A stretch of 64,000 nt of DNA from an uncultured Thermoplasmata archaeon (GTDB lineage: Archaea; Thermoplasmatota; Thermoplasmata; JAGHBH01): the NCBI GenBank assembly GCA_964601625.1, contig CAZROC010000002.1, positions 80,694 through 144,693 of the forward strand, read 5' to 3'. A program made the translations under genes and the position numbers. Shown here piece by piece: positions 12,066-52,506 of this stretch (positions are counted from its first letter, which is position 1; each line of letters opens with the position of its first letter). The notes under the pieces are model-generated. The model made no database searches, was not told the DNA's origin, and saw only the letters and a program-made list of their open reading frames with translations.

Positions 12066-12228
12066 TTCCGCAACCCCCGCTCAATGTCATATAACGTCCA
12101 GCGGGTATGTGAAGTTTGCGGAGCGTGAGCGGAGCAAATTTGGGCGAGCGTAAGCGAGCCACATATCCGCCTGTTGTCCGAACCCGTAAGGGGTGGAGCG
12201 GGAGCGGAGAGTTGCGGGCGACGGGTTC
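12066..12228. repeat. attC-like cassette repeat (copy 1)
   Basis: TCATATAACGTCCAGCGGGTATGTGAAGTTTGCGGAGCGTGAGCGGAGCAAATTTGGGCGAGCG...GCCACATATCCGCCTGTTGTCCGAAC...GGAGAGTTGCGGGCGACGG. Confidence 0.7.
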
Positions 12229-12231
12229 ATC

Positions 12232-12462
12232 TCATAGATATTTAGAGAACTTGTCGATATCAACCTTTGCAAGCTTTAATATTCCCCTTAAAGTACCAAT
12301 TTTCAATTCTTTATGCATTGGAACTACTGTACCAACTTTTCCTTCTGGTGTGATTTTTGATAATCTAACATGACTTCCCTTTCTTCCAGTTATTTGAAAG
12401 CCAAATTTATTACACAAGATTTTAACAACTTCTTCTCCAGAAACATTTCTAAGCTTTGGCAA
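12232..12462 (-). CDS. hicA: HicA-family toxin
   Basis: 76 aa. GSHVRLSKITPEGKVGTVVPMHKELKIGTLRGILK. Confidence 0.65.
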   Translation of the reverse strand: MPKLRNVSGEEVVKILCNKFGFQITGRKGSHVRLSKITPEGKVGTVVPMHKELKIGTLRGILKLAKVDIDKFSKYL

Positions 12463-12679
12463 CTTTTTTTGCCTCCATTTCTATTGATATTTCGAAAGTT
12501 GTAAAAAGAGGATGCTCTTTTTCTTCAAGCGGAAATTCCTCAAGATATAATTCTGTGGCTTCTTTTAGATTCTGAATCGCTTCTTCTATTGTTTTACCTT
12601 GGCTTACAGTTCCAACCTCAGGGCATTCTGCAACATACATATCTTCTTCTTTATGAATTATTGCTGTTAATATCACCAT
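12449..12679 (-). CDS. hicB: HicB-family antitoxin
   Basis: 76 aa. EEDMYVAECPEVGTVSQGKTIEEAIQNLKEA. Confidence 0.65.
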   Translation of the reverse strand: MVILTAIIHKEEDMYVAECPEVGTVSQGKTIEEAIQNLKEATELYLEEFPLEEKEHPLFTTFEISIEMEAKKVAKA

Positions 12680-12736
12680 TTTTCAATCACCTCATTGATA
12701 CAATACCTCTCCTGCATATTTTAATATTTTCCCAAG

Positions 12737-12880
12737 CCCGTCGCCCGCAATTTCGGACAACGTCCAGCGGGTATCTGAAGCCATAAGCCGGTAGGCGAAG
12801 GGTTTAGGCGGAGCATAGCGAAGCCAGATACCCGCTTGTTGTCCGAGTGCGATAGCACCGAAGCGAGGCGGAGAGTTGCC
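12737..12880. repeat. attC-like cassette repeat (copy 2)
   Basis: CCGTCGCCCGCAATTTCGGACAACGTCCAGCGGGTATCTGAAG...GCCAGATACCCGCTTGTTGTCCGAGTGCGATAGCACCGAAGCGAGGCGGAGAGTTGC. Confidence 0.7.
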
Positions 12881-12889
12881 TGCTTGGTA

Positions 12890-13282
12890 TTATACGTGCC
12901 ATATACTTTTCTTATTTTTTCCGTCAAAACAAATTACATAGTTATCTAAAATGTTTTCTCGGCCTATTATGTTTATTCCTGTTCCTAGTCTGTCGGAAAA
13001 GCCTATTATTGCGTTGGTTTTTAGATGTTCAATAATCAACTCCAGTTTAAAGATGTACAGTGGGATTATTCCCCCGTCACCAACAGTGATGTCTTTTCTT
13101 TCTCCGGAATATATGTCTAAGCCCAGTTCTTCTGCAAAATCGGCATGGAAGACGGAATATGTGGCACCAGTATCAAGATAGGCTAGGGTTCTAACTGTCT
13201 TGTCTTGGTTTATTATTTGTACTTCAACTAATGGGCAGTAACGGCCTCTCCATGGGATATAAGGTATTTCTATCTTGTTCAT
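12890..13282 (-). CDS. retropepsin-like (clan AA) aspartic protease
   Basis: 130 aa. AYLDTGATYSVF (D-T/S-G-A active-site motif). Confidence 0.55.
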   Translation of the reverse strand: MNKIEIPYIPWRGRYCPLVEVQIINQDKTVRTLAYLDTGATYSVFHADFAEELGLDIYSGERKDITVGDGGIIPLYIFKLELIIEHLKTNAIIGFSDRLGTGINIIGRENILDNYVICFDGKNKKSIWHV

Positions 13283-13545
13283 ATTAAAAGAGCCTCCTCT
13301 CCCCTCCTTGGTATATATGCTATCAATGGGTCCTTGACTCCCATTTTTTTGACCTTCTCATACACTTCGTGTATTGTTTTTCCTATAGCAACGATTTTAT
13401 TTTTGTATAAGGCAACATATTTTCCTCCCTGTTCCTCTTCCAGTTTCTCTTTATTCGCTATCAGATAAAGCATCTCATCGCTGACCATTTTGACCACCTT
13501 TATTATTGCATATACTCCTCCATAGCTTATATGATTTACTATCAA
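13279..13545 (-). CDS. small protein partner of the retropepsin-like protease (hypothetical)
   Basis: 88 aa. Overlaps protease gene by 4 nt. Two-gene cassette reminiscent of TA-like pairs. Confidence 0.35.
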   Translation of the reverse strand: MIVNHISYGGVYAIIKVVKMVSDEMLYLIANKEKLEEEQGGKYVALYKNKIVAIGKTIHEVYEKVKKMGVKDPLIAYIPRRGEEALLI

Positions 13546-13559
13546 ATTACCGGGCAGGC

Positions 13560-13720
13560 AATTACGCCTAACGTCTTGCGAGGTATCTGAAGCCCTGAGC
13601 CGATAGGCGAAGGGTTTAGGCGAAGTGCCGGAGGCACGTAGCCAGATACCCGCTTGTTATATGACCCGAACGAAGTGGGGGCGAGGAGCGAAGCGGAGAG
13701 TTGCGGGTGAAAGTTTTCCT
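13560..13720. repeat. attC-like cassette repeat (copy 3)
   Basis: ACGCCTAACGTCTTGCGAGGTATCTGAAG...GCCAGATACCCGCTTGTTATATGACC...GGAGAGTTGCGGGTG. Confidence 0.7.
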
Positions 13721-14530
13721 TTAGAGGGAATTTGTAATGGCATATAAACATACTCCTTTAAGCCTACATATCTCGCATTGAGGCTTTTTAATGCATATCT
13801 TGTACCTATCTTCCGCACAATATGACCAAATGAAAATATCCACTATACCTGGAGATTCTCCTAAATCTATTTCTTTGAAACTACCATCTTTTTTCTTTAT
13901 TTTTATTTTAAATCCCTTTAGATGTTTCTCACAAAAACGTGTAAGAATATCTTGAAAATGAGCTTTTTCTAATGGGTCGCTTCTATCCTTACTGCTACAA
14001 CTATGATAGATTCCGCTTCGGAGTATAAATCTCATTTCATGTGTATCTATAGGGACTCTATCCCAATATCCAAAATCACGAAGATAGTTATCTCTTCCTT
14101 TTTCACCTAAAACCTTAGTTTTTCCTTCTTTTGCCAAATTGTAGAGGTTTTCCGTGAAATCTTGTATTGTGGGATATTCAAGAAGATGTTCTATGTTTTT
14201 CTTTCTTCGATTTCCCACTAACCCAATTAGTTTATTTTTCGCTCCAGATGTTCTGAAATTTTTCCCATGATCTCTAATGAAAGAATCCATTTTGCTGTCA
14301 AAATCTAAGGGTTTCTTCAAGCGCCATCCATTGGTTACTATTAATTCAACTATCATACGCAGCGCTTTTAGAGAGTTAGGGTTTCTCCCAAGTTCATCTT
14401 TGTTGTTTATAAAGAATTGAAGGTCGTCTTTAATCTCTTTTGAATGAGCATTTCTCAACATCCAATTAATAGTTTCTTTGAATTCTTTAGCGAATTTAGT
14501 TGTATTAAATTCCATTTTTATTACCTCCAC
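13721..14530 (-). CDS. HhH-GPD superfamily DNA glycosylase (endonuclease III-like) with C-terminal Cys cluster
   Basis: 269 aa. LGEKGRDNYLRDFGYWDRVPIDTHEMRFILRSG resembles the HhH-GPD motif (VDTHV.R). C-terminal CAEDRYKICIKKPQCEICRLKGVC. Confidence 0.5.
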   Translation of the reverse strand: MEVIKMEFNTTKFAKEFKETINWMLRNAHSKEIKDDLQFFINNKDELGRNPNSLKALRMIVELIVTNGWRLKKPLDFDSKMDSFIRDHGKNFRTSGAKNKLIGLVGNRRKKNIEHLLEYPTIQDFTENLYNLAKEGKTKVLGEKGRDNYLRDFGYWDRVPIDTHEMRFILRSGIYHSCSSKDRSDPLEKAHFQDILTRFCEKHLKGFKIKIKKKDGSFKEIDLGESPGIVDIFIWSYCAEDRYKICIKKPQCEICRLKGVCLYAITNSL

Positions 14531-14537
14531 TTATTCT

Positions 14538-14690
14538 TTCGCCCGCAATTTCTGACAACGTCCTGGGGATATGTGAAGTTTGCGGAGCGTGAGCGGAGCA
14601 AATTTGGGCGAGCGGTAGCGAGCCACATATCCTCCTGTTGTCCGAACCCGTAAGGGTCGAAGCGAGGCGGAGAGCTGCGGGCGACGGGGG
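14538..14690. repeat. attC-like cassette repeat (copy 4)
   Basis: CGCCCGCAATTTCTGACAACGTCCTGGGGATATGTGAAGTTTGCGGAGCGTGAGCGGAGCAAATTTGGGCGAGCGGTAGCGAGCCACATATCCTCCTGTTGTCCGAACCCGTAAGGGTCGAAGCGAGGCGGAGAGCTGCGGGCGACGG. Confidence 0.75.
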
Positions 14691-14703
14691 CATTTTAATC
14701 ACT

Positions 14704-17700
14704 CTAAATTTCATAATGATGTTTCGAATAACTCCCTTCTGTTATTTTTAGATTACCACTCTTTAAATCTCCGATTATATTTTGAATTTGTGTTTCAATG
14801 TCTCCTAGTTCTTTTCCTTCACTTGTAGTTATAAGAAAATCTGTAACGCCAAGTTTCTCATAAATTTTATATTTTTTAAACCATCTATTTTTATATAATT
14901 CATTATTTAAAAGTCCCAGATGCTCCCAATAAAACTCACCATTTTCTAGGAAAATTTTGAAATCCGGTTTTATATGGTACTCTGCCGTAAAGTCTTCAGG
15001 TTCATAAATAAATTCTATTCCAAGCGAATCTAGAGCTTTTGCAATTATGTATTCAATCTTGGATCTAACTGCAATCTTCTTGCCATTCTTTAATTGAACT
15101 AAATACGGTTTAAATGGACTTTGTTTATGACCGAACAAAAGTGTATGAATTAATTCAATTTGAGAATTAATATAAGCAGTTCTAACTAACTCATATAACT
15201 CTTCTTTTAACTCCTCATATACTAAAACATACATTTTCTTCTTTGCTCTAGTAAAGCCGGTATATAGTAATTCACGAGTTATAAACGATGACCTCTCAGA
15301 CAGAACAAAGAGCACATAATCAAAATCACTCCCCTGAGATTTATGAACCGTAATAGCATACGCAGGTGTATACGATATATCCGCTTTCTCAATTTGATTT
15401 AATAATTCTGATTTTATTTCTTTCAATTTATCCAATATTTTTTCTTTTGCTTTAGGGAATATGTTAAATAGGTCATCAATGTCAACAAATTTGACATATC
15501 CTCTCTTAGTTAAATATCCTATCGAGCCATTAGCTAAAGCAAGAATTCTTTTATTTTTTTCAATTTCCCAATACTGGTTTTCCTCGCAAATTATTTTAGT
15601 GCCTTCTGGAATCCTACTCTGTCCTTCAAGGATGATTTGTCTGTTTATCACAATGCTTCCAAACATCCCAACTCTTTTTGGAGTTATTATTTGAATTTTT
15701 TCTAGATTGTTATAATCAAACTTCCCATCAGGTTCGAAAATGTAACCAAATAATTTCCACAAACTTTCATTATTTTTTTGTTTACTCATCTCAAGGAGAA
15801 TTTGTCTTAACTTCTCTTTCAAATCGTTTGCATCTCTAAAATAATTTATCTCTAGTGTATCATCGGCTGATTTTGCTATATCATGTATGTCCTCTAATAA
15901 AGGTTCTTTGGCACCTCTAAACAATTCGGCTAATTCTTCTACTTTGGCACATTTGATACCATTAAATGGAAAGCGTAAGTTTGTACTTAGGTGACAATAT
16001 TTGCTTTCCAATCCCTGATTTTTAAGATGATATATAAGATCAATAAATGGTCTGCCAACACCTATGGGTGGAAGCTGTTTATCATCCCCTATGATTATCA
16101 AGTGCTGGACTGTAGAAGGATTTATTAGGCTGAATAAAAGGCAGAGAAGAACTTCGTCCACCATTGAAGCCTCATCAATTATAACAACTTTTGGATTAAA
16201 TTGCCAGTATCTTGCCAATCTATTGAAGTCATTTATAAATTCATATTGCCCCTCAAAGATTTTTGATGTAAGATCTACAAGCTTAAATATCTCGTTCCTA
16301 CGTTTATATGACAATCTTTTGGTTCTTTCAAATAATTCTCTATATATAAACCTATGAATTGTTGAAATTGTAATGCTTAAATCGTTGTCTAATCCCAGCT
16401 CTTTTAAACGCTTTCGAATCACCAAACTCGCTTTACCTGTGGGTGTAAAAATAAAAACAGGAGCTTTTCTTTGATTTTTGAATATATCGATTAGGTTAAG
16501 AATTGCAGAAGTTTTTCCGCTCCCAGCTTTTCCGCTTATAACAACCAATTTATTGCGAAGTATTTTTTGATAAAGTTCGTGTCTCTCTCTTATAAAATGT
16601 TTGTATGTGTTACTATCTCTAAGTTTATCTTTGAATTTCTCAACATCTCTACTTACTAAGGTGGATACAATATCTTGATCAATGGTGTATTCCACTCCCT
16701 TCACTTTTTTAATAAATTCTTCAATTATTCTCTCTATTTTTTCCATAGATTTTAGCTGATAAATTGTTTGATCATAGATGGAAATTATATTGAATATCTC
16801 TTTAAATCTTGGATTATTCTCATATTCACTTAATAGTAATTGATCAATTTCAAAATCCTGTTGAATGTAATATAAAGGATAATCTTTGATTTTCTCTAAA
16901 ATTTCATCTCTTGAGAGGTACGTATGTCCATCATTTTGGGCGGCGTTTCTAAGGATCAGGGTTATCAGAGCCCGAATTCTTTCCAAGGATTTAGCAGTGT
17001 ACAAAGCTCTCCAATTTGCATATCTCGTGTCAGGAATAAGTGCAATATCTAAGTGATAAACAGAAATGCCATAGTCATTGTTATCTATATCCCAATCATC
17101 GTCTTTGATATCATAAAAGTACTCTTCTAAAATAGAATATGGATTTGCTTTAAAATTTTTGAATCCTTTTTTGCCGATAAAATCAATTATGTTTTTGAAT
17201 TGTTGTTTTGAGAAATCAAAACGAGCTAAAAAAGTGAAAACTTCAAACTGTGACTTTATTATATTAATGGTGGTTTCTAACTCCCCATCTTCGCATTTTA
17301 AAGCGGTTATATTTTTCTCATCATTTAAAAACTCATCTATCGATCCAAACTTTTTGATGATAAACGTCTTTAGTTTTCTAATTATTTCTTCAATTTTATC
17401 ATCTCTAAAGTTATCTTTCAGCTTAATTGCAATGAGATTCTCAAAGCCTGGATACTGTTCTCGCTCTCTCCAAGCAATTTCTAATAATTTATCTACTTTT
17501 TTCTCATAATTTTCAATTTGTTCAATAGGAATAACTCCATGCTCTTTTAGCTTATTTATTGATTTTTTCAGTTTGTACAATAAGTAAATAGCTTTATCAT
17601 GCGTTAGATGCATTGAAACGTACTTGAAATGAGGTATTATAGTTGGGTCATCTACCTTTACGGTTATATCTTCTAACCATTTTTCCTTCTCTTCTCTTTT

Positions 17701-18411
17701 TATACCATCTTTTTTTTCTAGAAATTGTAGATACTCATGATATGGGAGTATAAATGTTAATTTAGGATCAAGAGGAACTTGAAATTGCCATGCGATTTTA
17801 GGGAAAACTGGCATTTTCCTATTTATATCCTCATACAATTCTTTTGGAATAGCATATTCTTTAGGAAATTCTATCTTCTCTCTTACTAAACCCACACCCA
17901 ATACCAAATATTTTCTCTCATCTCCAGTGATTGGATTGCTGTAATTCGCATAGAAAAAAACTATTGATTTAGACGATTCAATCTTTTTTATGTATTTTCT
18001 TACCCTATCCTCTAAATCAGGAGGATATTTATATGCTCCAGTGGTTGTAAATGATAACTTGAAATTCCACGTGAATGCTGAAAAAGGTTTTAATACTTCT
18101 TTAAGTGGCGGAACAACACTAAATTTATCCCATGTGTCTCCGAAGGGATGAATATCTTCTACGTTATATTCTTTCTCCCCAAGTACATTTATACACCAGT
18201 AGCAAGGTGGTGTATAATTTGCATTATCCTTTACTTCCGATATGGATCTTCCTTTAAATTTTTCTTCGATTTCAATATTTCTCCTTCTTTGGATTCTAGA
18301 AGATAAAAGGGAATAATTATCAACACAATAAACATTCTCAAATGGATTCTTACAAACTTTTCCGTTCCATTTGCTGTCGTGCCATGCAAATCTTATTGTT
18401 AGATGTTTCAT
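14704..18411 (-). CDS. Large superfamily-1 helicase-like protein (RecD/AAA_30-like core) with long N-terminal region
   Basis: 1235 aa. Walker A GKAGSGKTS, Walker B VIIDEASMVD, motif VI-like TVHKSQGSDFDYV. Sole gene of its cassette. Confidence 0.55.
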   Translation of the reverse strand: MKHLTIRFAWHDSKWNGKVCKNPFENVYCVDNYSLLSSRIQRRRNIEIEEKFKGRSISEVKDNANYTPPCYWCINVLGEKEYNVEDIHPFGDTWDKFSVVPPLKEVLKPFSAFTWNFKLSFTTTGAYKYPPDLEDRVRKYIKKIESSKSIVFFYANYSNPITGDERKYLVLGVGLVREKIEFPKEYAIPKELYEDINRKMPVFPKIAWQFQVPLDPKLTFILPYHEYLQFLEKKDGIKREEKEKWLEDITVKVDDPTIIPHFKYVSMHLTHDKAIYLLYKLKKSINKLKEHGVIPIEQIENYEKKVDKLLEIAWREREQYPGFENLIAIKLKDNFRDDKIEEIIRKLKTFIIKKFGSIDEFLNDEKNITALKCEDGELETTINIIKSQFEVFTFLARFDFSKQQFKNIIDFIGKKGFKNFKANPYSILEEYFYDIKDDDWDIDNNDYGISVYHLDIALIPDTRYANWRALYTAKSLERIRALITLILRNAAQNDGHTYLSRDEILEKIKDYPLYYIQQDFEIDQLLLSEYENNPRFKEIFNIISIYDQTIYQLKSMEKIERIIEEFIKKVKGVEYTIDQDIVSTLVSRDVEKFKDKLRDSNTYKHFIRERHELYQKILRNKLVVISGKAGSGKTSAILNLIDIFKNQRKAPVFIFTPTGKASLVIRKRLKELGLDNDLSITISTIHRFIYRELFERTKRLSYKRRNEIFKLVDLTSKIFEGQYEFINDFNRLARYWQFNPKVVIIDEASMVDEVLLCLLFSLINPSTVQHLIIIGDDKQLPPIGVGRPFIDLIYHLKNQGLESKYCHLSTNLRFPFNGIKCAKVEELAELFRGAKEPLLEDIHDIAKSADDTLEINYFRDANDLKEKLRQILLEMSKQKNNESLWKLFGYIFEPDGKFDYNNLEKIQIITPKRVGMFGSIVINRQIILEGQSRIPEGTKIICEENQYWEIEKNKRILALANGSIGYLTKRGYVKFVDIDDLFNIFPKAKEKILDKLKEIKSELLNQIEKADISYTPAYAITVHKSQGSDFDYVLFVLSERSSFITRELLYTGFTRAKKKMYVLVYEELKEELYELVRTAYINSQIELIHTLLFGHKQSPFKPYLVQLKNGKKIAVRSKIEYIIAKALDSLGIEFIYEPEDFTAEYHIKPDFKIFLENGEFYWEHLGLLNNELYKNRWFKKYKIYEKLGVTDFLITTSEGKELGDIETQIQNIIGDLKSGNLKITEGSYSKHHYEI

Positions 18412-18451
18412 AATACTATTCTCCCCATATTAGATTTATTAATTTCGTTAG

Positions 18452-18600
18452 TCCGTCGCCCGCAATTTCGGACAACGTTCTGGGGATATGTGAAGTTTCG
18501 CCGATAGGCGAAATTTGGGCGAGCGGTAGCGAGCCACATATCCTCCTGTTGTCCGAACCCGTAAGGGTCGAAGCGAGGCGGAGAGTTGCGGGCGACGGGC
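18452..18600. repeat. attC-like cassette repeat (copy 5)
   Basis: CCGTCGCCCGCAATTTCGGACAACGTTCTGGGGATATGTGAAGTTTCGCCGATAGGCGAAATTTGGGCGAGCGGTAGCGAGCCACATATCCTCCTGTTGTCCGAACCCGTAAGG...GGAGAGTTGCGGGCGACGG. Confidence 0.75.
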
Positions 18601-18602
18601 TA

Positions 18603-19850
18603 TTATGTTCTATACTTTTTAATAAGGTCCACATTTTCATTATACCCCCGACATATATCGTTGAGAGGGCATTCTTCACACTTTGGTTCATCATGATTAT
18701 AACAATAATTGGTACCGATATACATGAGCCCATCATCAAAATCAGCTACCGAGAATTTATATCCATCTTGATGTAATTTATAAATGAGGAGATTTGGGAT
18801 TCTTTGTATTTCCACAGATCTAGGTCTTCCCATTTTTAGAAGCTCCCGTACCACAAATAGATATTCATTGAAAATCTCTGAGTTCTGAGGAATTCCAGTT
18901 GCTTTTCTGCCTCGGATATTAGTCACCCGTATGTAATTAACTCCACCTTTACCTTTTCCTTTTTGAATTACGTCCCATTTTTCATAATCCTTTAAAGAAG
19001 CCAATTCCAGAAGGAAACCGGTTCTAAATAAAACACGCCCAGCATTACTGTCGAAAGGAACTTCATATGAGAAATCCGTCCAACCATTATCTTCCGTTCT
19101 ATGTTTTACAAGTCTAAAAATACTAACATATAATTTAGCAAATAAATGGCAGGCTTTATCACCAATCGCACTTCCGAGACCGTATCTTTCATTATCTTTT
19201 AATTGTTGGGCCATAATTTCAGCCGATGGGTATGATTCCAGATAGTCAATTAAGGGTTGTGGAGAGATCTTACGTTGTGATTCTAAATCTTTCTCTAATA
19301 GTAATGGAACACATAAAGGCACACCCCACCTATGAATTGCATAATCCAATACTTGCTTGGTTGATATTATACCACGCATAGACTGAGCAAAAAATAAATT
19401 ATATTTGCTAGGTGATGATTTATTCTCTTTGGCCCAATCTTCTGCCCGTATTTCTTTAATTGATTCATGTTTAGATAATATTTCATCAATTGAAATGCCT
19501 AGCTCTTTAAAGAAATCCATTGGTCTGTGAAATATTCTAATTTCTTGTCTGTATAAACTGGTCGTTACATTTTTCAGTAGCTCTCTAACACCAATCATAT
19601 CTGGACCTTGATCTAGTACAACATTTACTAATAAATATCTGGTCAATATTTCCCGCCTTGTGAATTTACCGTCATATTCATCGAGCTCATCATATTTTAA
19701 AGTTCCATCCTTTTTAAAGTAATGTTTGAAAGGCTCTACTTCAAAAATAGGCGGCATCTCTCTTTCTTGGCTTCCGATCTCCGCTAATCTTTTCGCAAGA
19801 TCTAAAAGGAATTCCCAATCAATCATTTTTATCACTCCATTTTTCACCAT
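18603..19850 (-). CDS. HhH-GPD-like protein with Fe-S-cluster-loop-like Cys motif (putative DNA glycosylase; candidate restriction partner of the adjacent MTase)
   Basis: 415 aa. GLGSAIGDKACHLFAKL and FDSNAGRVLFRTG resemble HhH/GPD elements. C-terminal C-x7-C-x2-C-x5-C (CYNHDEPKCEECPLNDIC) resembles the EndoIII FCL. Confidence 0.35.
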   Translation of the reverse strand: MVKNGVIKMIDWEFLLDLAKRLAEIGSQEREMPPIFEVEPFKHYFKKDGTLKYDELDEYDGKFTRREILTRYLLVNVVLDQGPDMIGVRELLKNVTTSLYRQEIRIFHRPMDFFKELGISIDEILSKHESIKEIRAEDWAKENKSSPSKYNLFFAQSMRGIISTKQVLDYAIHRWGVPLCVPLLLEKDLESQRKISPQPLIDYLESYPSAEIMAQQLKDNERYGLGSAIGDKACHLFAKLYVSIFRLVKHRTEDNGWTDFSYEVPFDSNAGRVLFRTGFLLELASLKDYEKWDVIQKGKGKGGVNYIRVTNIRGRKATGIPQNSEIFNEYLFVVRELLKMGRPRSVEIQRIPNLLIYKLHQDGYKFSVADFDDGLMYIGTNYCYNHDEPKCEECPLNDICRGYNENVDLIKKYRT

Positions 19851-20595: not shown

Positions 20596-20627
20596 CGTTA
20601 TACCGCATAGTAATTTTCATATTTAAT

Positions 20628-20800
20628 CCCGTCGCCCGCAATTTCGGACAACGTCTGGCGAGGTATCTGAAGTTTGCGACCTTGGGGAGCAAACTTGGGC
20701 GAAGCCACCCAACGGGTGGCAGAGCCAGATACCCGCCTGTTATACGCTCCGAACCAATAGGTGAGGACGAGGGAGCGACAGCGACCGAAGAGTCGTGAGC
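20628..20800. repeat. attC-like cassette repeat (copy 6)
   Basis: CCGTCGCCCGCAATTTCGGACAACGTCTGGCGAGGTATCTGAAG...GCCAGATACCCGCCTGTTATACGCTCC...AGTCGTGAGCAAAAGGC. Confidence 0.7.
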
Positions 20801-21633: not shown

Positions 21634-21689
21634 AATAAATGTCTCTCTGATTTTTTTTACACCACCAAAGAAACTTTTTTTCTCGATTT

Positions 21690-44660: not shown

Positions 44661-44687
44661 ATTCTATATCACCAATCCCAATTATAT

Positions 44688-44865
44688 CGCTCACAGCCTT
44701 GCGTTGCCGAAGGCAATGTCGCCTAACGTTTTGCGGGTATGCGAAGTTGCCCGATAGGGCAATTTGGGTGAGCAACGAAGGTGCGAACCGCATACCCGCC
44801 TGTTATATTCCCCGAGCGTAGCGAGGGCGAGGAGCGTTAGCGACGAGAGTTGCGGGCGAAAGGTA
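44688..44865. repeat. attC-like cassette repeat (copy 13)
   Basis: GCGTTGCCGAAGGCAATGTCGCCTAACGTTTTGCGGGTATGCGAAGTTGCCCGATAGGGCAATTTGGGTGAGC...CCGCATACCCGCCTGTTATATTCC...GAGAGTTGCGGGCGAAAGG. Internal stem GGGTATGCG/CGCATACCC. Confidence 0.7.
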
Positions 44866-44883
44866 CGTTTAAAGATGAGTATA

Positions 44884-45816: not shown

Positions 45817-45819
45817 ATA

Positions 45820-47658
45820 CTATTTACCTCCCAATTGGTGACCTTCATTATTATCTATACATAGATGCAGCTCTTTAAGCTGATCTTTTGAAACAGTAGA
45901 AGGAGTATCGTCCATCAGGCACCTTCCATCCTTATTTTTAGGAAATGCTATTACTTCTCTTATGGAGTCAACTCCTGCCATAATAGCAACAAGTCTATCT
46001 AAACCTAACGCAATTCCACCATGAACTGGTGCACCGTAATCCAGCAATTCTAACAATGATCCAAACTTAGTCATATATTCTTGGGGTGATAGCCCAATCA
46101 ATTTGAAGATTTTTTCTTGGAGTTTTCTATCATGGATTCTTATTGACCCTCCACCAACTTCCCAACCGTTAAGCACAAGATCATAAGCTTTAGATCTAAT
46201 CTCAGAAGGATCCTTCAAATCGTTTAATGAATCAATCTTCATTAATATCTCTATATGTTCATCTTTAGGAGATGTGAAAGGGTGATGAACACAAACCCAG
46301 CGTTCTTCTGTGTTGGAATACTCAAACATCGGAAAATCAACTACCCACAAAAACTGATACTCTTGTTTATCCAGTAACCCATAGTCTCTAGCGATCTTTA
46401 ATCTAATTTCTCCGAGTGTTTCTGAGACCTCTTTACCTCTTCCTGCCATAAGTATTAATAAATCTCCATCACTTAATTGGGTCCTCTCTATTATACGATT
46501 TATTTCCAATGTAGATAGATGTTTAGATATTTGTGATTTTAATTTATTGTCAATGAATTTAAACACAAAAACCCCCTTGTCTCCTTTACTTCTAACAAAA
46601 TTTGAGATTTTATCAATATACTTACGACTAATTTTATCTGCTAATTTTGGTATTTTTATACATTTAATAACACCATTATTATTAAGAACTTCTCTAAATA
46701 TAGTAACAGATGTATTTTTGAAAATGTCAGATAAATCTACAATTTTAGATTTAAAGCGTAAATCTGGTTTATCTGTGCCGAATTTATTAATAACATCATC
46801 ATATGAGTATATAGGGAAAGGTGTTTTTATTTTAATATCAAGTGTTTCTCTAAAAATATACTTCAAAAGGTCTTCGATAGTTCTAAAAATATCTATGGGC
46901 TCTACCCATGACATTTCAATATCTATTTGTGTGAATTCTGGCTGTCTGTCTGCTCTTAAGTCCTCATCTCGTAGGCATTTTGCAATTTGATAATACTTGT
47001 CAAATCCTGCTATCATCAATTTTTGTTTATATTGTTGGGGAGATTGAGGCAAGGCATAAAATTTTCCAGTGTGAAGACGGGATGGAACCAAAAAGTCCCT
47101 AGCGCCTTCAGGAGTTGGTTTTGCGAGAATTGGCGTTTCAATATACACGAATCCTTTTTCAAATAGATAGTGCATGGTATAATTAATCACCTTACTTCTC
47201 AAAATGATTCTATTTTGCATGTCCTTTCTCCTTAAATAAATGGGTCTCCACCGTAGTTTAGATTCATCATATATCTTCGCATTATCCTCAACTGGAATGG
47301 GTAAAGGTTTTGCTTTATTGTATATAAAGCACTCTTTCACTATGACCTCAATATCTCCCGTTTTTATATGTGGGTTTTTTAAATTTTCCGGTCGTTCTTT
47401 GACAACACCTTTTATTCCGATTGTACTATGAATATTTAAATGTCTTAAAACTTCAAATTGGTCTTCTTTTATCATGCTTCTATTGAAAACAAGCTGCACT
47501 TCCCCGTATCTATCAAATAGGTTCACAAATATCATACCACCATGCCATCGAAGACTTTTAATCCACCCAGATAGGACAACTTCTTTTCCCACATCTTTCA
47601 ATGTCAATTCTCCACACGTATGAGTCCTATATTTTTTTACCTTTTTCATGATTATCAC
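45820..47658 (-). CDS. aspS: Aspartyl-tRNA synthetase, bacterial-type length (with insertion domain)
   Basis: 612 aa. N-terminal OB fold, FVYIETPILAKPTPEGARDFLVPSR, QSPQQYKQ, FRDEDLRADRQPEFTQIDIEMSW, GAPVHGGIALGLDRLV. Confidence 0.8.
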   Translation of the reverse strand: MIIMKKVKKYRTHTCGELTLKDVGKEVVLSGWIKSLRWHGGMIFVNLFDRYGEVQLVFNRSMIKEDQFEVLRHLNIHSTIGIKGVVKERPENLKNPHIKTGDIEVIVKECFIYNKAKPLPIPVEDNAKIYDESKLRWRPIYLRRKDMQNRIILRSKVINYTMHYLFEKGFVYIETPILAKPTPEGARDFLVPSRLHTGKFYALPQSPQQYKQKLMIAGFDKYYQIAKCLRDEDLRADRQPEFTQIDIEMSWVEPIDIFRTIEDLLKYIFRETLDIKIKTPFPIYSYDDVINKFGTDKPDLRFKSKIVDLSDIFKNTSVTIFREVLNNNGVIKCIKIPKLADKISRKYIDKISNFVRSKGDKGVFVFKFIDNKLKSQISKHLSTLEINRIIERTQLSDGDLLILMAGRGKEVSETLGEIRLKIARDYGLLDKQEYQFLWVVDFPMFEYSNTEERWVCVHHPFTSPKDEHIEILMKIDSLNDLKDPSEIRSKAYDLVLNGWEVGGGSIRIHDRKLQEKIFKLIGLSPQEYMTKFGSLLELLDYGAPVHGGIALGLDRLVAIMAGVDSIREVIAFPKNKDGRCLMDDTPSTVSKDQLKELHLCIDNNEGHQLGGK

Positions 47659-47667
47659 CTCAATTTT

Positions 47668-49689
47668 TCATGGTACAAATAATTTACTCGTTCTGGGAAA
47701 AGCTACGACTCTTGATACGTCACCAAAGCCTAACAATTTAGTTATAAATCTTTCAATGCCCAAAGCAAAACCTCCATGTTGTGGCACATTTTTATCTTTA
47801 TAAATATCCAAATACAACTTATACCTCTTAGGAGGTAGACCCGATTTTATTAAATTTTTTTCTAATGTTTCGTAATCGCATTCTCTCAAACTACCAGATG
47901 CCACTATCCAGTCACTCATTATAAAATAGAAACGAGTAGATGTTTTTTCATCTATGTTTTTGACATAGAATCTTCTAAAATCGACAGGTAAATTTGTTAC
48001 AAAATACAGTGATGTATCAAACTCGTTTATTATGTGTTTTGTTATGATAGGAAGATATTTCCTAAATGACCTATCATCGTTTACCTGTACACCATTTTTG
48101 CCAAAATATTCTACCAAGTCAGAAAATGTTATTTTCATGATCTTATCAGAATAAAGTGCTTTATATAATCCAAAATCTCTTAAATATACATATTCATTCT
48201 CCCAAAGCTTTTCTCTGCATGAGATTATCATGTTTTTTAATAAGTTAATAATGTTATCAGTATTATTTGTAGTTAGTTCGCAGTCCACGGCCCACGCTTC
48301 ACACAACGAGTCCTTGCGGTGATGAGTTAATTTTCTCCAAAATGGTGCAATCTCATATATTTTCTCAAATCCATTTACAATCAAAAGAGATTTGTAATAT
48401 TGTGCTGATGCTCGTAGGAAACTCTTCTTACCATAGTAATCAACTTCAAACTGTGCTACTTTTTTTGTTGTGGTTATATCTACCGGGATCACAGTTATTA
48501 ATGGCGTGAATATCTCAATAAAGCCCTCCGAAGTAAGAAATTGTTTCATATAATTAATAGCAGAAGATTTAATTATAAATATTGGTTTTTTAACGATGAA
48601 TATACTTCTATCCGATAAATGTTCCTTTATAGTGTAATCTATTAACCTTTTTTGTAAATACAATTTAAAGTTCTCACACTCCCTCCCGATAATAGAATTA
48701 ACCTTTATAAGTTCCTTTTTACGCATTTCGATCGTTTTATCTGCAAATCTTCTGATATCATCAATATGGTAAATCCGTATCTTTTTGATTTTCTCTATTT
48801 CCAAATCGATCACTGGTGGAACACTTATGTCAAAAATTTTTACATCTTTTTTAAGCAGATTTGTGTCGTTGATGGTGATAAGATGTTTGGGAGAGTCAGT
48901 AGTAGCGATTATTATATCATACTCTTTGAGATTTTGCTTTAGGTATGAGTAGCTATATACAACATATCTTAGATCTTTTATTTTTTTGGCTTTCTCTGGA
49001 TTTTTAGTGTATACAAACACTTTCTTAAAACCATTCTCGTGGAGTGCCTTACATATCAATTGTCCTGAACTTCCTGCTCCTAATACAGCAATGTTGCTAT
49101 CAATATGAACATTCTCCTTAAGAAGGTGTGCTACTATGTTTCGTTCTATACTTGTGTATCCGCGATGGAAGCTGGTTTTATTATTTATTTCATCATCAAC
49201 AATTTTTGCATATTCAAAAAGGGTTTGTAAAAAAACACCTGTACAACCACTTTCCCTTGCGATTTGAAATGCCTTTAAAACTTGACCTCTTACTTGTGAA
49301 TCACCTAATATGACACTCTTTACACCGCATATGGTCTCAAACAAGTGTCTAACACCATGCATCTGGCTGTATTTCTCAAGTTTTGTTTTATAAATATCCT
49401 CATGGAACTTTTTTGAAAACTTCTTCCATACTTTGTATATAACTTCATCCACCATCCTCGGATCAGTAGTTACCACATAGAACTCTATAGAATTGCACTT
49501 TTGAATTATTACACATTCTTTAATTATTGAAATATTTTTTAACTCACAAAGAGCAGGTCTTACATCTTTTATTTTCTTATTACTATCCCACAAAGACATA
49601 TCCCCAATAATCTGTTGAAAATTTCTTTCTGCACCACCAACTCGTCTAACTTCTAAATGATTATTTTTTAAAAAATCCTCAACGAGCAT
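47668..49689 (-). CDS. Fusion protein: N-terminal glutamyl-tRNA reductase (HemA)-like domains + C-terminal class II aaRS catalytic core
   Basis: 673 aa. CVIIQKCNSIEFYVV (compare VLSTCNRTEIY), HLFETICGVKSVILGDSQVRGQV (compare [23 protein letters not shown]), NAD(P) site VLGAGSSGQLICKAL. C-term FWRKLTHHRKDSLCEAWAVDCE (motif 2) and QHGGFALGIERF...VVAFPR (motif 3). Confidence 0.55.
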   Translation of the reverse strand: MLVEDFLKNNHLEVRRVGGAERNFQQIIGDMSLWDSNKKIKDVRPALCELKNISIIKECVIIQKCNSIEFYVVTTDPRMVDEVIYKVWKKFSKKFHEDIYKTKLEKYSQMHGVRHLFETICGVKSVILGDSQVRGQVLKAFQIARESGCTGVFLQTLFEYAKIVDDEINNKTSFHRGYTSIERNIVAHLLKENVHIDSNIAVLGAGSSGQLICKALHENGFKKVFVYTKNPEKAKKIKDLRYVVYSYSYLKQNLKEYDIIIATTDSPKHLITINDTNLLKKDVKIFDISVPPVIDLEIEKIKKIRIYHIDDIRRFADKTIEMRKKELIKVNSIIGRECENFKLYLQKRLIDYTIKEHLSDRSIFIVKKPIFIIKSSAINYMKQFLTSEGFIEIFTPLITVIPVDITTTKKVAQFEVDYYGKKSFLRASAQYYKSLLIVNGFEKIYEIAPFWRKLTHHRKDSLCEAWAVDCELTTNNTDNIINLLKNMIISCREKLWENEYVYLRDFGLYKALYSDKIMKITFSDLVEYFGKNGVQVNDDRSFRKYLPIITKHIINEFDTSLYFVTNLPVDFRRFYVKNIDEKTSTRFYFIMSDWIVASGSLRECDYETLEKNLIKSGLPPKRYKLYLDIYKDKNVPQHGGFALGIERFITKLLGFGDVSRVVAFPRTSKLFVP

Positions 49690-49690
49690 C

Positions 49691-50860
49691 TTAGATCACC
49701 TCGCTCCATTTTTTATAAATATTCTTTATTTGTGACTTTGAAATTGGCCATGGATTGTTAATAAGTAGTCTTTCTCTTTTTAAACAAGATGCAACCATTC
49801 TATCCAAATTTAATCTATTTCTTAATTTGATAAGATAATTCCTATATCCTGTAAAGTTCATACATCTATTAATTACTTCAATACATCTTATTAGAATATC
49901 TTCATCTATGTGGTCTACAAAATCCCCATAATATTCTTCCAACACAAATTTTAAAAATAGGGATACCGCTATACTGTGTGGTATTTCGTACAGGTCTTGC
50001 AATGGATAGGACAAAGCATGAATTAAACCAACGCCAGCATGTTTGTCAGCTATACCAGCATAAAAAGTTCCTATCATCAATTTCTCTCTATTGTTAATTT
50101 TATTAGGGTTAGTAATAGATTGTAAGAGATTTGATGAAATAAGGTTTATAGAATAAGATGAAAAAGTCTTAGTCATGTATGTTTTCTTTTTAGAAATATG
50201 TGCCTCAATTGCATGGGATAACGCATCAAGTCCTGTGGATGCAATAATCGATTGAGGCAACGTAAGGGTCCAAAGAGGATCCAAAAGCACAATATCGGGA
50301 AGCAAAAGAGGATCTATTAATGCAACTTTTTCTCCGCTGTTATTTTTTACTATAGATATGTCTGTTGCTTCACTACCACTTCCAGTTGTTGGTAATACAA
50401 ATAACGTAGTCTTTGAAATTTCTGTTATAACCTTTTTAGTATCTATAATATTTGATAAAGTTTGAAGCGGGCTTACGGTTCTGTTGATTACGGATACTAT
50501 CTTTGCCAAGTCAATTGTACTTCCACCACCAATTGCAATGATAGCATCCGCTTTGTTTTTATGACAGACATTGTGCATCATTTTTCCTATAGTACCTATA
50601 GTTGGTTCACCACTTGGTTTTTTGTATATATCATATGAAATAGTATTTTCATCTAAAATCTTCAGTAGTTCTTTCATTATATCCATATTTTCTATAGATA
50701 ACGAAATAATAATTAATATTTTATCACAATTTTTATTCTTCAATTCATTAATAATTGCTTTGTAACACCCTTCTCCATAATAGGTCTTTGGAATTTCTAT
50801 ACTGTTTATTTCTTTTTGTTTAGTTCTTCCAGCACATCCATTAGATGGCATAGTATTCAC
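49691..50860 (-). CDS. Iron-containing alcohol dehydrogenase / 3-dehydroquinate synthase-like oxidoreductase
   Basis: 389 aa. GGGSTIDLAK glycine-rich NAD motif. His-rich metal-site region. Confidence 0.55.
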   Translation of the reverse strand: MNTMPSNGCAGRTKQKEINSIEIPKTYYGEGCYKAIINELKNKNCDKILIIISLSIENMDIMKELLKILDENTISYDIYKKPSGEPTIGTIGKMMHNVCHKNKADAIIAIGGGSTIDLAKIVSVINRTVSPLQTLSNIIDTKKVITEISKTTLFVLPTTGSGSEATDISIVKNNSGEKVALIDPLLLPDIVLLDPLWTLTLPQSIIASTGLDALSHAIEAHISKKKTYMTKTFSSYSINLISSNLLQSITNPNKINNREKLMIGTFYAGIADKHAGVGLIHALSYPLQDLYEIPHSIAVSLFLKFVLEEYYGDFVDHIDEDILIRCIEVINRCMNFTGYRNYLIKLRNRLNLDRMVASCLKRERLLINNPWPISKSQIKNIYKKWSEVI

Positions 50861-50887
50861 CCCAAATTGTTATTGTTTTAGTATGCC

Positions 50888-51045
50888 TTTCGCCCGCAAT
50901 TGAATATAACGTCCAGCGGGTATCTGAAGTCCTGAGCGACAGCGAAGGATTTGGGCGAAGTGCCGGAGGCACGTAGCCAGATACCCGCTTGTTGTGCGAA
51001 CCCGATAGGGCTGATGCCGAAGGCGGAAGGTCGTGAGCAAAGGGC
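50888..51045. repeat. attC-like cassette repeat (copy 14)
   Basis: TTCGCCCGCAATTGAATATAACGTCCAGCGGGTATCTGAAG...GCCAGATACCCGCTTGTTGTGCGAACCC...GTCGTGAGCAAAGGG. Confidence 0.7.
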
Positions 51046-51058
51046 AAACTGGCATTAA

Positions 51059-52348
51059 TCATTTCATACCACCTTTTTTCTTCATTTTTTCTTTCCATGT
51101 TATAAATTCAAATAATGCGTCAATTTCAAGATAAATGGGCAGTTTTGGACATTGCTGTCCAACAGTTCTTAAATATGTTCGCTTTACAATTTCCATATCT
51201 TTAACGAAGGCATCGTATTTCGCAGGTGAATAGGGAGATGCTAAATCCTTAAAAATTTCTTTTAATCCTTTTTTAGCCTTCCCATTTAAATGCGGGTACT
51301 TATCACCATGTGCAAGCATTAATAATTGTGTTGCTAATCCCCATGGATGCTTATCCTTTCCCCCAATAAGTATTTTATTACAAAATCTTTCAATTCTATC
51401 AGTTACAGGTTTTTTCCCATATAATAGCTCTTTCAGCTCTTTATTTAATTTTTTCTCTCCATTTTTATTTATGATCTCTTTCTCCACAAAAATATCTGGG
51501 TTCTTTCGGCTATACCCTCCTTCTGTTCTTATTATATTATCCAAATCAAATAAAGGATATTTTCCTCCAAATAGTTCTATAAGTTCTCTTTTACTAAGCG
51601 TCCTACCTCTTTTTATTTTGTCAATTAATTTTTTCTTACTATTATAAAATCGTAATCTTGCATCACATTCGTTTGGTACTGCCCAAGGTCCGCGTTTTGT
51701 TTTCCACCATGTTGACAAATCACTTTTATGTTCATTCAAGCATTGTCCTACTAAAATGATCTTTTTGCTGCCAATGTCTGACATTTTAATCTTGTATATT
51801 TCCTTTTTCACGTTCTCTTTAGTTTTTTTAATGTGTCTATAATCCTTTTTGTATTGTTTTACTAAATCATCATTCAACCTCACTCCATTGCTGAAAATTT
51901 TATCAAAATTTACAAGAACATCTCTTATTTCTGGATCAGAGGCTTTTCCACTAATTAAAACATTATATTCAAAATTATCTGAAAAACCTCCTTTACTTAC
52001 ATTTGACGATCCTATTATTACGGTAACATCATCACTCTTCTTAAATATGTACGTTTTTATATGGAATGTCTTTCCACTTACGGGAAAATTATATAATCTA
52101 CACTCCCATGAGGCTCCTGCCTTTATTTCATTGAGAATGTCCTCTAATACTGCCTGTTCAGTATTATAAAAATCACACCCGATAGCAAATTGCACATTCT
52201 TTTTTAGTAATACACCTTTAAGTTTGTCATACATTTGTTTCTTGACAAAAAATACTGCTATTTTGACATCGTTTGCTTTGTTTATTTCCCATCTTATTAT
52301 ATGTTCCAAATCCTCTTCAGGAACAAGTATTGTCCTAATATTAGCCAT
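51059..52348 (-). CDS. PLD-family (HKD) nuclease-like protein with C-terminal unknown domain
   Basis: 429 aa. Single HKD motif FHIKTYIFKKSDDVTVIIGSSNVSKGG. Confidence 0.55.
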   Translation of the reverse strand: MANIRTILVPEEDLEHIIRWEINKANDVKIAVFFVKKQMYDKLKGVLLKKNVQFAIGCDFYNTEQAVLEDILNEIKAGASWECRLYNFPVSGKTFHIKTYIFKKSDDVTVIIGSSNVSKGGFSDNFEYNVLISGKASDPEIRDVLVNFDKIFSNGVRLNDDLVKQYKKDYRHIKKTKENVKKEIYKIKMSDIGSKKIILVGQCLNEHKSDLSTWWKTKRGPWAVPNECDARLRFYNSKKKLIDKIKRGRTLSKRELIELFGGKYPLFDLDNIIRTEGGYSRKNPDIFVEKEIINKNGEKKLNKELKELLYGKKPVTDRIERFCNKILIGGKDKHPWGLATQLLMLAHGDKYPHLNGKAKKGLKEIFKDLASPYSPAKYDAFVKDMEIVKRTYLRTVGQQCPKLPIYLEIDALFEFITWKEKMKKKGGMK

Positions 52349-52506
52349 GTTTAAACACCTCCTGCATCAATATTCTTTTCCCCTTCTTAAGCCCTTTGCT
52401 CACGATTTCGCACAACTCCCCCATCTCCGCATTATTACATATATTTTGCTTTGCGGGTGGTGTATGTGTATTGCGGATATTTTTCTTTCTGGTGGTGTTT
52501 TGTGTG
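52349..52506. other. attI-like junction: half cassette-repeat adjacent to the integrase stop codon
   Basis: GCCCTTTGCTCACGATTTCGCACAACTCCCCC carries the left (AAC-side) box TTCGCACAAC, the exact reverse complement of the GTTGTGCGAA box of repeat copy 14. No right half follows. Confidence 0.45.

Follow-up and report, generated by a model that had tools for sequence, protein, structure and literature searches.

Introduction

Cassette arrays have been described in archaeal genomes by Ghaly et al. (2022), with attI immediately downstream of intI, and an exchange of cassettes between the domains was proposed (PMC9668308). In that work IntIs were defined by the IntI-specific domain, most of the loci were clusters of attC sites lacking an integron integrase (CALINs), and the nine attC sites tested were classical ones of ~70-90 nt that were recombined by the bacterial IntI1 (PMC9668308). 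The IntI-specific insertion (I2) is regarded in the field as the innovation that enabled recombination of folded single-stranded DNA (ssDNA), according to two articles (PMC4792948, PMC7790495). The present study concerns a 42-kb array of 16 cassettes, each consisting of genes and one structured site, on the chromosome of an uncultured Thermoplasmata archaeon, together with the tyrosine recombinase gene that adjoins it. The array lies in a stretch of 64,000 nt (NCBI GenBank assembly GCA_964601625.1, contig CAZROC010000002.1, positions 80,694 to 144,693 of the forward strand), referred to here as the window. All coordinates are those of the window, the spans of sites are given from AAC to GTT on the + strand, and L-numbers (L002, L014, L081, L104 and so on) are labels of related loci in comparative scans.

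The array had been noticed in an original prediction made from the sequence alone. The repeats at the cassette boundaries were described there as attC-like, with covarying stems and with core boxes that match from one repeat to the next as in a daisy chain, and were taken as the signature of circular cassettes, each carrying one site, inserted serially at a G|TT-type crossover. From the results presented below, the locus is likely a sedentary chromosomal platform for the capture of cassettes, integron-like in its organization and run by a different branch of the tyrosine recombinases.

Results

A one-way array of cassettes next to a recombinase gene

The repeat family extends from 10,682 to 52,416 and comprises 15 full copies of 76-121 nt (C1 to C15), one truncated copy and one half-site junction, all in a single orientation. 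It coincides with a block of low GC content (~10.7-52.4 kb; 31-40% GC vs ~52% in the flanks), within which the sizeable open reading frames (ORFs) are all on the minus strand. Read on that strand, the order is the recombinase gene (52507-53631), an attI-like site and then the 16 cassettes, the recombinase gene being transcribed in the same direction as the cassettes. The attI-like region (52417..52506, minus strand) is the interval between the recombinase stop codon and the insertion point, and its top strand ends in ...GATGGGGGAG|TT. The insertion point is marked by a terminal half-site, TTCGCACAAC (52407-52416), in which a normal left flank up to AAC is followed by unrelated sequence without a core; this junction is 90 nt past the recombinase stop codon. 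The copies listed in the original prediction are real, its copy 1 being C2, but C1 and the truncated copy at 10682-10754 had been missed, and the terminal half-site had been placed at 52404 instead of 52407-52416.

Architecture of the sites

When folded with DNA parameters, each copy forms a stem, stem A, and two hairpins, which together make a three-way junction. The elements of the + strand fold are an R arm, in which box and AAC pair with GTT and box, an asymmetric spacer (5 nt vs 1-2 nt on its two sides), the uninterrupted 11-bp stem, and the two hairpins. All the stems and hairpins quoted in the original prediction were found in the copies, and the covariation claimed for the stems was borne out on alignment. 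In a MAFFT alignment of 14 window copies, stem A was 99.4% paired, with compensatory changes in 5 of its 11 pairs. For stem A and the base of hairpin 1 taken together, 97.5% of the cells were paired, compared with 84% in shuffled alignments and 17-49% in slid controls, and neither the observed pairing nor the observed covariation was reached in any of 500 shuffles. The 54 distinct sites from other loci behave in the same way (96% of cells paired, compensatory changes in 14 of 17 pairs). Conserved motifs of the sites include ATTTGGG, and TTTGGG/CCCAAA is nearly invariant. Extrahelical bases are absent as a conserved feature; the 11-bp stem is bulged in 3 of 58 outside sites and in 3 of 14 window copies, at no conserved position.

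The two ends of a cassette pair with each other

The seven bases after the GTT of one site were compared with the reverse complement of the seven bases before the AAC of the next. Neighbouring boxes matched at a mean of 6.0/7, whereas the two boxes of the same site matched at 3.7/7 (permutation p<1e-5). Along the array the matches out of seven were 7,6,7,2,3,7,7,6,6,6,6,7,6,7,6,7, so that at least six of the seven bases agree in 14 of the 16 cassettes. The daisy chain is hence real, and all nine neighbour pairs listed for it beforehand are correct; the list had left out C3->C4 and C4->C5, the two exceptions considered in the Discussion.

The pairing extends beyond the boxes. In 16/16 cassettes a segment of 8-16 nt, located 15-56 nt past GTT, pairs just 5' of the box at the opposite end. 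The score of this outer stem was 12.25 for the own cassette and 6.3 for other combinations, a difference reached in 0 of 20,000 permutations. One or two small hairpins, on one strand, separate the box from the outer stem in the window lineage. The R arm is built by the two ends of the same cassette and is lengthened by the outer stem.

The site of a circular cassette was modelled by joining the left flank of site i+1 to the core and right flank of site i. These composites fold at a mean of -46.9 kcal/mol, and the sites in their array context at -35.0. The own flank was the best of 16 in 10 of 15 composites, and the rest tie with flanks of the same type. A circularized cassette would thus rebuild a far more stable hairpin, which supports insertion by way of circular cassettes.

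A module made up of the GTT box and the small hairpins (e.g. GTTATATGACCCGAACGAAGTGAGGGCGAGG...) recurs nearly unchanged beside different outer stems and in different organisms. It is seen in the right flanks of C3/C12 and C4, at 14229-14273 in L083, at ~9800-9874 in L081 and at ~13430-13480 in L089, and its end is a conserved RAG|T(T/C) boundary similar to the attI junction. That R box and hairpins occur as a module with more than one outer stem (C3/C12; C4/L083/L081/L089) is indicative of gene conversion or of recombination within the site.

The sites fold on the strand opposite the genes

The + strand, opposite to the genes, was the more stable one in 14 of 15 sites and tied with the other in the remaining one. 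In the composite sites 58 G·T pairs were counted on the + strand and 4 on the minus strand, and the summed energies were -704 and -617 kcal/mol, respectively. Hairpin 1 has a G·T pair at its base that persists in 12 of the 14 window copies and, among the distinct outside sites, in 50 of 54. Both the G·T bias and the stability bias indicate that the strand selected to fold is the + strand. This strand matches the 'bottom strand' of integrons and is the wrong one for a structure in mRNA. The bias is one of folding.

Position of the crossover and mobility of cassettes

The relation between the boxes is symmetric between the strands and cannot by itself place the crossover at either end of the repeat, so the daisy chain, though real, is not in itself the signature of a G|TT crossover that it had been held to be. 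The half-site at the recombinase end is informative in this respect. It ends at AAC without a core, and the core must therefore belong to the cassette on its right in + coordinates. On the coding strand the order is G|TT and box, genes, inverse box and AAC, core, G|; the first bases of a cassette are TT and the 7-nt box, and its last is the G of the site it carries.

Breakpoints between related arrays are found at the same position. One cassette starts straight after the recombinase gene and attI in L104 (...TATGAACAAG|TTATCTGCC...) and follows an internal attC in L112 (...CCTCAACCG|TTATCTGCC...). In longer extracts the start reads ...TATGAACAAG|TTATCTGCCGTTGCTG in L104 and ...GCCTCAACCG|TTATCTGCCATTGCTG in L112. 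The 3' site of this cassette is common to both loci up to ...CG|TT, after which they diverge; the core moves with its cassette. The platforms of L081 and L086, which are 92% identical, part immediately after GAACGAG|TT, and L106 and L112 have their first cassette in common and diverge after its site. In five other loci the attI region ends in (A)G|TT, the cassette box and the arm of the outer stem, and insertion points lie ~90 nt after the recombinase stop codon in several platforms. As shown by these sequence comparisons, the crossover is G|TT on the minus (coding, 'top') strand, equivalent to AA|C at the left edge of the repeat on the + strand. The G|TT crossover of the original prediction was right in view of the L104/L112 and L081/L086 breakpoints, provided that it is read on the minus strand.

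Cassettes behave as discrete mobile units in L104/L112, in L106/L112 and in the case of a HicAB cassette. Cassette 9 of the window, which encodes HicAB, has a HicAB counterpart of 82% identity in L083 and L084; its flanks are kept, 30 bases at one end being identical. The serial insertion first proposed, of circular cassettes with one site each, is supported by the recombinase and its attI-like junction, by the G|TT breakpoints elsewhere and by the stability of the circle composites.

The recombinase lacks the integron-specific insertion and carries an additional domain

The recombinase (374 aa; 52507..53631, minus strand; Pfam PF00589 and PF13495) begins with a HARP-like domain (~residues 1-70), which is followed by a SAM-like core-binding domain and by a catalytic domain with the residues R199, K224, H289, R292, H315 and Y324 all present. 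It scored 239 bits with the NCBIfam model XerA_Arch (NF040815; cut-off 220), a model named 'tyrosine recombinase/integron integrase' by NCBI. With the integron integrase model TIGR02249 it scored 230 bits, below the cut-off of 265, and the match is in two stretches because the IntI-specific insertion is missing. In place of residues 180-239 (60 aa) of VchIntIA (2a3v, IntI4), the recombinase has only residues 244-261 (18 aa), and this region is equally short in 22 of 22 aligned members of the family. VchIntIA (2a3v) is nevertheless the best match by sequence and, with Foldseek, by predicted fold, ahead of XerA. The XerA structures 4a8e and 5hxy are close, and matches to solved XerA start at query residue 66 or later.

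The N-terminal ~70 residues have a beta-beta-alpha-beta-beta-alpha layout. HARP (PF07443) matches the N-termini of 5/5 family members, one of them above the gathering score. A library search with the HARP domain only returned 1053 cluster representatives at E<=0.001, many of them tandem-HARP proteins of 600-1100 aa or short fragments; these matches support the domain assignment and are not a measure of the size of the recombinase family. HARP domains bind forked DNA, and the HARP-like domain would by inference help to read the branched site. The exact sequence of the window recombinase had no record in a sequence look-up, and no second integrase was found among the window ORFs scanned. The AT skew of the + strand is -0.43 over 52001-54000, the most extreme bin of the window, the coding strand of the recombinase being A- and C-rich.

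Recombinase and sites occur together in Archaea and Bacteria

A covariance model of the window copies was run on loci encoding relatives of the recombinase. Among the close relatives (52-58% identity), sites were found in L081 (five), L083 and L084 (three each), L085, L086, L088 (three), L089 and L090; they were also found in L014, a Bacteroidia contig, and, weakly, in L002, a 4.3-Mb Spirochaetota contig. Every one of these sites is on the strand opposite to the recombinase gene. A metagenome scan seeded with the HARP-like domain alone returned 80 loci, in which 58 of 58 model matches were again on the strand opposite to the recombinase gene. A site was present downstream in 26 of the 34 metagenomic loci with at least 1 kb of downstream sequence. 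Many metagenomic contigs stop just past the recombinase gene, as expected where repeats break assemblies. The downstream genes in related loci belong mostly to restriction-modification and toxin-antitoxin systems.

The same architecture occurs in a cultured Aquificota bacterium, Desulfurobacterium atlanticum (L089). Its attI reads ...ACAGAG|TTATATGACATTCCGCCCCGAAGCC, and the cassette ends with GGCTTCGGGGCGGAA, hairpins, GTCATATAAC and core. Positions 13479-13582 of L089 and 39838-39941 of the window (site C13) are 88% identical over 104 nt, a likeness in sequence that suggests a pool of cassettes or sites common to both domains. No hairpins interrupt the R arm of L014 and L002, which runs continuously over ~20 bp.

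Upstream of the recombinase gene, sites were seen at 9874-9963 in L081 (truncated), just upstream in L116, L117 and L150, and ~1.3-5.8 kb upstream in L111 and L128. The overlap of L111 with L112 places array sequence upstream of a second copy of the recombinase.

A genome-contig scan with the full-length recombinase alignment and generic Xer/IntI motifs gave, among the matches listed, mostly relatives of 35-46% identity. Repeat searches in four of these gave nothing useful; L002 and L014 matched the covariance model later. In a plasmid collection, the N-terminal domain was covered only by relatives of at most 40% identity, on Chryseobacterium and Persicobacter plasmids. No description of this pairing of recombinase and site was found in the searchable literature, most subscription journals being outside it.

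Cassette content

Measured from GTT to AAC (n=16), the cassettes are 585-9296 nt long and hold up to nine genes. The first start codon is 25-82 nt from the cassette boundary in 15 of 16 cassettes and 156 nt from it in cassette 13, which leaves little room for promoters; the last stop codon is 35-91 nt from the boundary. Toxin-antitoxin cargo consists of three HicAB pairs and one ParE. Defence-related cargo includes a methyltransferase with its likely restriction partner, a PDC-S68 helicase, the trio of a DpdA-like/DUF6884 protein, HerA and a 615-aa protein, a split Tiamat-like TmtA, a nuclease of the PLD family and a radical SAM protein with a weak pVip match. A nine-gene cluster and a four-gene cluster with three class II aminoacyl-tRNA synthetase (aaRS) paralogues make up the biosynthetic cargo, and several cassettes are without assigned function.

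All cassettes are on the minus strand. The attI-proximal cassette 16 (50910..52415) carries the PLD-family nuclease gene (51059-52348) and site C15 (50908-50993). Cassette 15 (44727..50909; site C14, 44725-44804) holds four genes, for the three class II aaRS-like paralogues and an iron-type alcohol dehydrogenase (Fe-ADH). Its genes lie at 44884-50860; the paralogues are of the Asp/Lys/Asn type, and one is fused to a region resembling glutamyl-tRNA reductase and shikimate dehydrogenase. This unusual gene set possibly serves an aminoacyl-tRNA-dependent biosynthesis. In cassette 14 (39852..44726; site C13, 39850-39929) the TmtA (Tiamat)-like defence protein is present as ORFs of 1200 and 367 aa. 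The two ORFs (39964-44660) are adjacent and match the N- and C-terminal parts of one PADLOC model (PDLC03972); the split could be a frameshift, a pseudogene or a genuine two-gene form. Cassette 13 (30482..39851; site C12, 30480-30555) is the 9.3-kb cassette of nine genes, among which are sugar-nucleotide enzymes, a glycosyltransferase, a radical SAM/SPASM protein, an O-methyltransferase, a phosphatase and a kinase-like protein.

The radical SAM protein with the weak pVip match is encoded by cassette 12 (28998..30481; site C11, 28996-29075), and a 163-aa ORF to which no function was assigned by cassette 11 (28123..28997; site C10, 28121-28197). The DUF6884/DpdA-like protein, the HerA ATPase and the 615-aa protein are together in cassette 10 (22827..28122; site C9, 22825-22907), which is followed by the HicAB pair of cassette 9 (22122..22826; site C8, 22120-22208) and by small proteins, including one with a double zinc ribbon, in cassette 8 (20652..22121; site C7, 20650-20741). 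Cassette 7 (18476..20651; site C6, 18474-18550), with an N6/N4 DNA methyltransferase and a 415-aa partner, is probably a restriction-modification system. Cassette 6 (14559..18475; site C5, 14557-14639) encodes the SF1 helicase of 1235 aa, which matches PADLOC PDC-S68 with 1022 bits. Cassettes 5 and 4 (12761..14558) encode a 269-aa ORF and a DUF5678 protein with a 130-aa ORF, respectively, and have the sites C4 (13570-13658) and C3 (12759-12840). The last three, cassettes 3, 2 and 1 (10682..12760), encode HicAB, HicAB, and ParE with a 65-aa ORF; their sites are C2 (12093-12175), C1 (11365-11485, 121 nt) and the truncated terminal copy T0 (10682-10754).

Flanks of the array

The left end of the array is decayed, with its last site truncated at 10682-10754 and a relic of a site farther out at 8048-8154. 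The relic (+ strand) was detected by the covariance model R1 with 22.8 bits (E 1e-4, filters off); its stem A is broken and it has no GTT end. A segment of 89 nt is common to T0 and C1 (10682-10770 and 11413-11501, respectively; 93% identity). Within this segment is an additional long hairpin (GTGCCCTCCAT...ATGGAGGGCAT), which is absent in the other copies and accounts for the 121 nt of C1.

The interval between the array and the tRNA gene, 6621-10656, has ~42% GC, between the host and cassette values. Its minus-strand genes encode MBL-fold, UDG-family and ferredoxin proteins and Nuo/hydrogenase-like 49K, 30K and 20K subunits, and the relic at 8048-8154 lies inside it. This block may represent old cassettes that are now fixed. 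Ahead of the tRNA-Thr gene (6382-6454), its 5' end is partially repeated three times (GCCGCCGTAG... at ~6087, 6248 and 6317); two of these partial copies sit in a 49-nt direct repeat, 161 nt apart. The partial copies (6086-6454) may be scars of repeated integration at this place or tRNA-derived elements. An island integrated at tRNA-Thr was rejected as a description of the locus, because the recombinase is at the other end of the island, 46 kb away from the tRNA, and the interior is a cassette array. The host region carries archaeal markers, a flap endonuclease (fen_arch, 507 bits; cut-off 352), pelota (255 bits; cut-off 178) and a Taw2-like protein, as well as genes for Thi4 and a C25 peptidase.

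Discussion

A probable cassette-capture platform and its possible mechanism

The locus has an attI-like site beside its recombinase with insertion at G|TT, palindromic sites with AAC and GTT ends, and an inverse core complementary to the start of its own cassette, all as in integrons. Two defining features of integrons, the IntI-specific domain and the conserved extrahelical L-box bases, are lacking. 'attC-like', as the original prediction had it, is the right term for the sites, and 'integron' in the strict sense is not the right one for the locus.

In the mechanism proposed here, an excised circular cassette would fold into a fully paired structure of ~150-190 nt. The recombinase would bind this folded site as a dif-like site of roughly 11-6-11 geometry, cleave at AA|C and exchange one strand with attI, and the junction would be resolved by replication, as in integrons and in the integration of CTX phage by XerCD. 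In the array itself the R-arm pairing of the sites is poor, which would favour capture over excision. The HARP-like domain may stand in for the missing IntI insertion in recognizing branched or folded DNA.

Several observations weigh against such a platform or parts of its mechanism. Two neighbouring pairs of boxes do not match, C3->C4 (2/7) and C4->C5 (3/7), although both keep matching outer stems. Inversion, a swap in cassette order, and a second crossover at GAGAG|TT, the boundary between hairpin module and outer stem, were considered for these two pairs and none fits cleanly. The core of the HicAB cassette in L083 and L084 is of a different subtype despite the conserved flanks, and this is the sole comparison of a window cassette across genomes. 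Within the array the cores are mosaic, a pattern not predicted from one crossover point; they could have arisen by gene conversion between sites, or if the other strand is recombined from time to time. Six loci (L081, L111, L116, L117, L128 and L150) also have a site upstream of the recombinase gene, so that the layout is not always gene, attI and array; the platform of recombinase and attI may itself be mobile or sit inside arrays. The cut-off passed with the NCBIfam model of archaeal XerA makes a housekeeping role possible. Finally, use of ssDNA and resolution by replication are put forward by analogy and from the G·T asymmetry, and recombination is inferred rather than observed.

Alternative explanations

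The alternative that departs least from the platform retains the cassettes and the crossover but assigns recombination to a double-stranded substrate, by cruciform extrusion or by classical two-strand exchange. A recombinase without I2 would suit it, as the insertion is linked in the field to single-strand recombination (PMC4792948, PMC7790495), and mosaic cores and the core swap of HicAB would be easier to obtain with crossovers on either side of the core. Against this are the strand bias of G·T pairs (58 vs 4), the consistently higher stability of the + strand, the distance of 60-120 nt between the arms of a site, too far for a conventional duplex core site, and the L104/L112 core that moves with its cassette, as a single-strand model predicts. 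Recombination of duplex DNA is therefore improbable, if the least so of the alternatives. A slightly smaller chance is given to a recombinase that is the housekeeping XerA of the host, with a dif-like site as 'attI' and with cassettes that exploit Xer in the manner of integrative mobile elements exploiting Xer (IMEX; cf. CTX phage). The score with the XerA_Arch model (239 vs 220), the close XerA structures and short palindromes in the attI regions speak for it, as does the integration of folded single-stranded CTX DNA by XerCD through one-strand exchange (PMC3442271). The HARP-like domain, on the other hand, is not covered by the solved XerA structures, the best PDB match is an integron integrase, and the gene always abuts the array, which is unexpected for a gene of dimer resolution. 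Relatives occur, moreover, in Aquificota, Spirochaetota and Bacteroidia, which are expected to have XerCD.

An ordinary integron array (CALIN), moved in trans by a canonical IntI encoded elsewhere, would make the adjacent Xer-like gene a bystander. CALINs are the commonest integron-like finding in archaeal genomes (PMC9668308), and the sites do have AAC...GTT ends and the R and L box logic of attC. This explanation is nonetheless very unlikely. In 26 of 34 metagenomic loci the recombinase family is again accompanied by these sites, and all 58 sites of the scan point the same way; the insertion points are ~90 nt past the recombinase stop codon in several platforms, and the sites are without the extrahelical bases that canonical IntI reads. 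The nine archaeal attCs of Ghaly et al. are of a different type of roughly 70 nt, and the ORF scan of the window had yielded no second integrase. That the repeats are not recombination sites at all but structured RNA elements, terminators, or intergenic repeats like repetitive extragenic palindromes (REP) or miniature inverted-repeat transposable elements (MITE) is barely credible, for all that they are intergenic and highly structured and have conserved motifs such as ATTTGGG. No Rfam family matched the repeats, the only Rfam match in the window being the tRNA; the favoured structure is antisense to every gene; and neither an RNA nor a terminator function would explain the complementarity of cassette ends or the exact G|TT breakpoints between arrays.

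Significance

If the locus is indeed an integron-like capture platform, a natural and widespread cassette system with an I2-less recombinase would be another route to the same function or a living intermediate, and the transition from Xer to IntI could be tested with real proteins. It would provide Archaea with a native machine for cassette capture, the evidence so far being mostly clusters of bacterial-type attC sites without an integrase. It would also explain the assembly of some archaeal and bacterial defence islands with restriction-modification, HerA, Tiamat-like, PDC-S68 and toxin-antitoxin genes. A site-specific cassette can, at up to 9 kb, be a complete operon. Desulfurobacterium atlanticum, a cultured bacterium with a minimal version of the system that has a single cassette, is suited to experiments. 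Loci of this kind are probably mislabelled as XerC/D genes next to unrelated islands; should the attC model of IntegronFinder detect the sites, the label would be CALIN, since the recombinase should fail the IntI-domain profile.

A further proposition, on which we are evenly divided, is that of a second, not yet described lineage of integrons, which would have either survived from the transition between Xer and IntI or arisen in parallel. It would be characterized by an I2-less recombinase with a HARP-like domain that may bind branched DNA, branched single-stranded sites of ~150-190 nt, multi-gene cassettes of up to ~9 kb, and a pool common to Archaea and to anaerobic or thermophilic Bacteria.

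Comparison with known systems

The Vibrio cholerae superintegron, with VchIntIA and the V. cholerae repeats (VCR), has the same succession of recombinase gene, attI and long one-way array of compact cassettes. Its sites, too, are imperfect palindromes in which AAC...GTT is invariant and which consist of R arm, spacer and L arm; their structure is better conserved than their sequence. The crossover is likewise at G|TT, so that each inverse box fits the beginning of the cassette to which it belongs; it is the strand opposite to the genes that folds, toxin-antitoxin and defence cassettes are interspersed, and VchIntIA is the closest solved structure to the window recombinase. Unlike VchIntIA, the window recombinase is without the IntI insertion, has an N-terminal HARP-like domain, and is encoded in the direction of the cassettes. 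The window sites have no extrahelical bases and form a three-way junction in place of a simple variable loop, and outer stems specific to the cassette lengthen their R arm to at least ~20 bp. The window cassettes are as large as 9.3 kb, with nine genes, and the host is an archaeon.

With the archaeal integrons of Ghaly et al. the locus has in common a cassette array in an archaeal genome and an attI by the recombinase gene. The TTTGGG/CCCAAA motif of the window sites is absent from those of their supplementary sequences that are given as text (PMC9668308). An integrase gene in the direction of the cassettes is also a feature of the 'inverted-integrase' integrons of Spirochaetota and others, and the Spirochaetota genome of L002 encodes a 46%-identical relative of the recombinase with a weak site downstream. 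The integrases of 'inverted-integrase' integrons retain the IntI-specific domain and use classical attC sites.

Integration of CTX by XerCD involves an enzyme of the Xer type without the integron insertion, a folded single-stranded hairpin that mimics a duplex, exchange of one strand, and resolution by replication (PMC3442271). By analogy it would be the best precedent for an I2-less enzyme working on folded ssDNA, even though CTX elements are whole phages that enter the chromosomal dif by means of housekeeping enzymes and not arrays of cassettes with a dedicated recombinase. Archaeal XerA/dif overlaps with the window system in sequence family (NF040815; 4a8e, 5hxy) and in the putative geometry of the folded site, roughly 11-6-11. 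It differs in that the window recombinase has the HARP-like domain, is linked to an array and has folded sites of roughly 100-190 nt, compared with a duplex dif of 28 bp. In place of a single duplex dif of ~28 bp, the gene is followed by arrays of structured sites of 76-121 nt, here and in 26 of 34 loci. The pdif/Xer modules of Acinetobacter plasmids have 28-bp XerC/D sites in alternating orientation, whereas the window has 15 long folded sites in one orientation. Taken together, the description that fits the locus best is that of a variant of the integron kind, in which an IntI/XerA-like recombinase without the integron domain but with a HARP-like domain is paired with a distinct family of extended sites, common to archaea and some bacteria.

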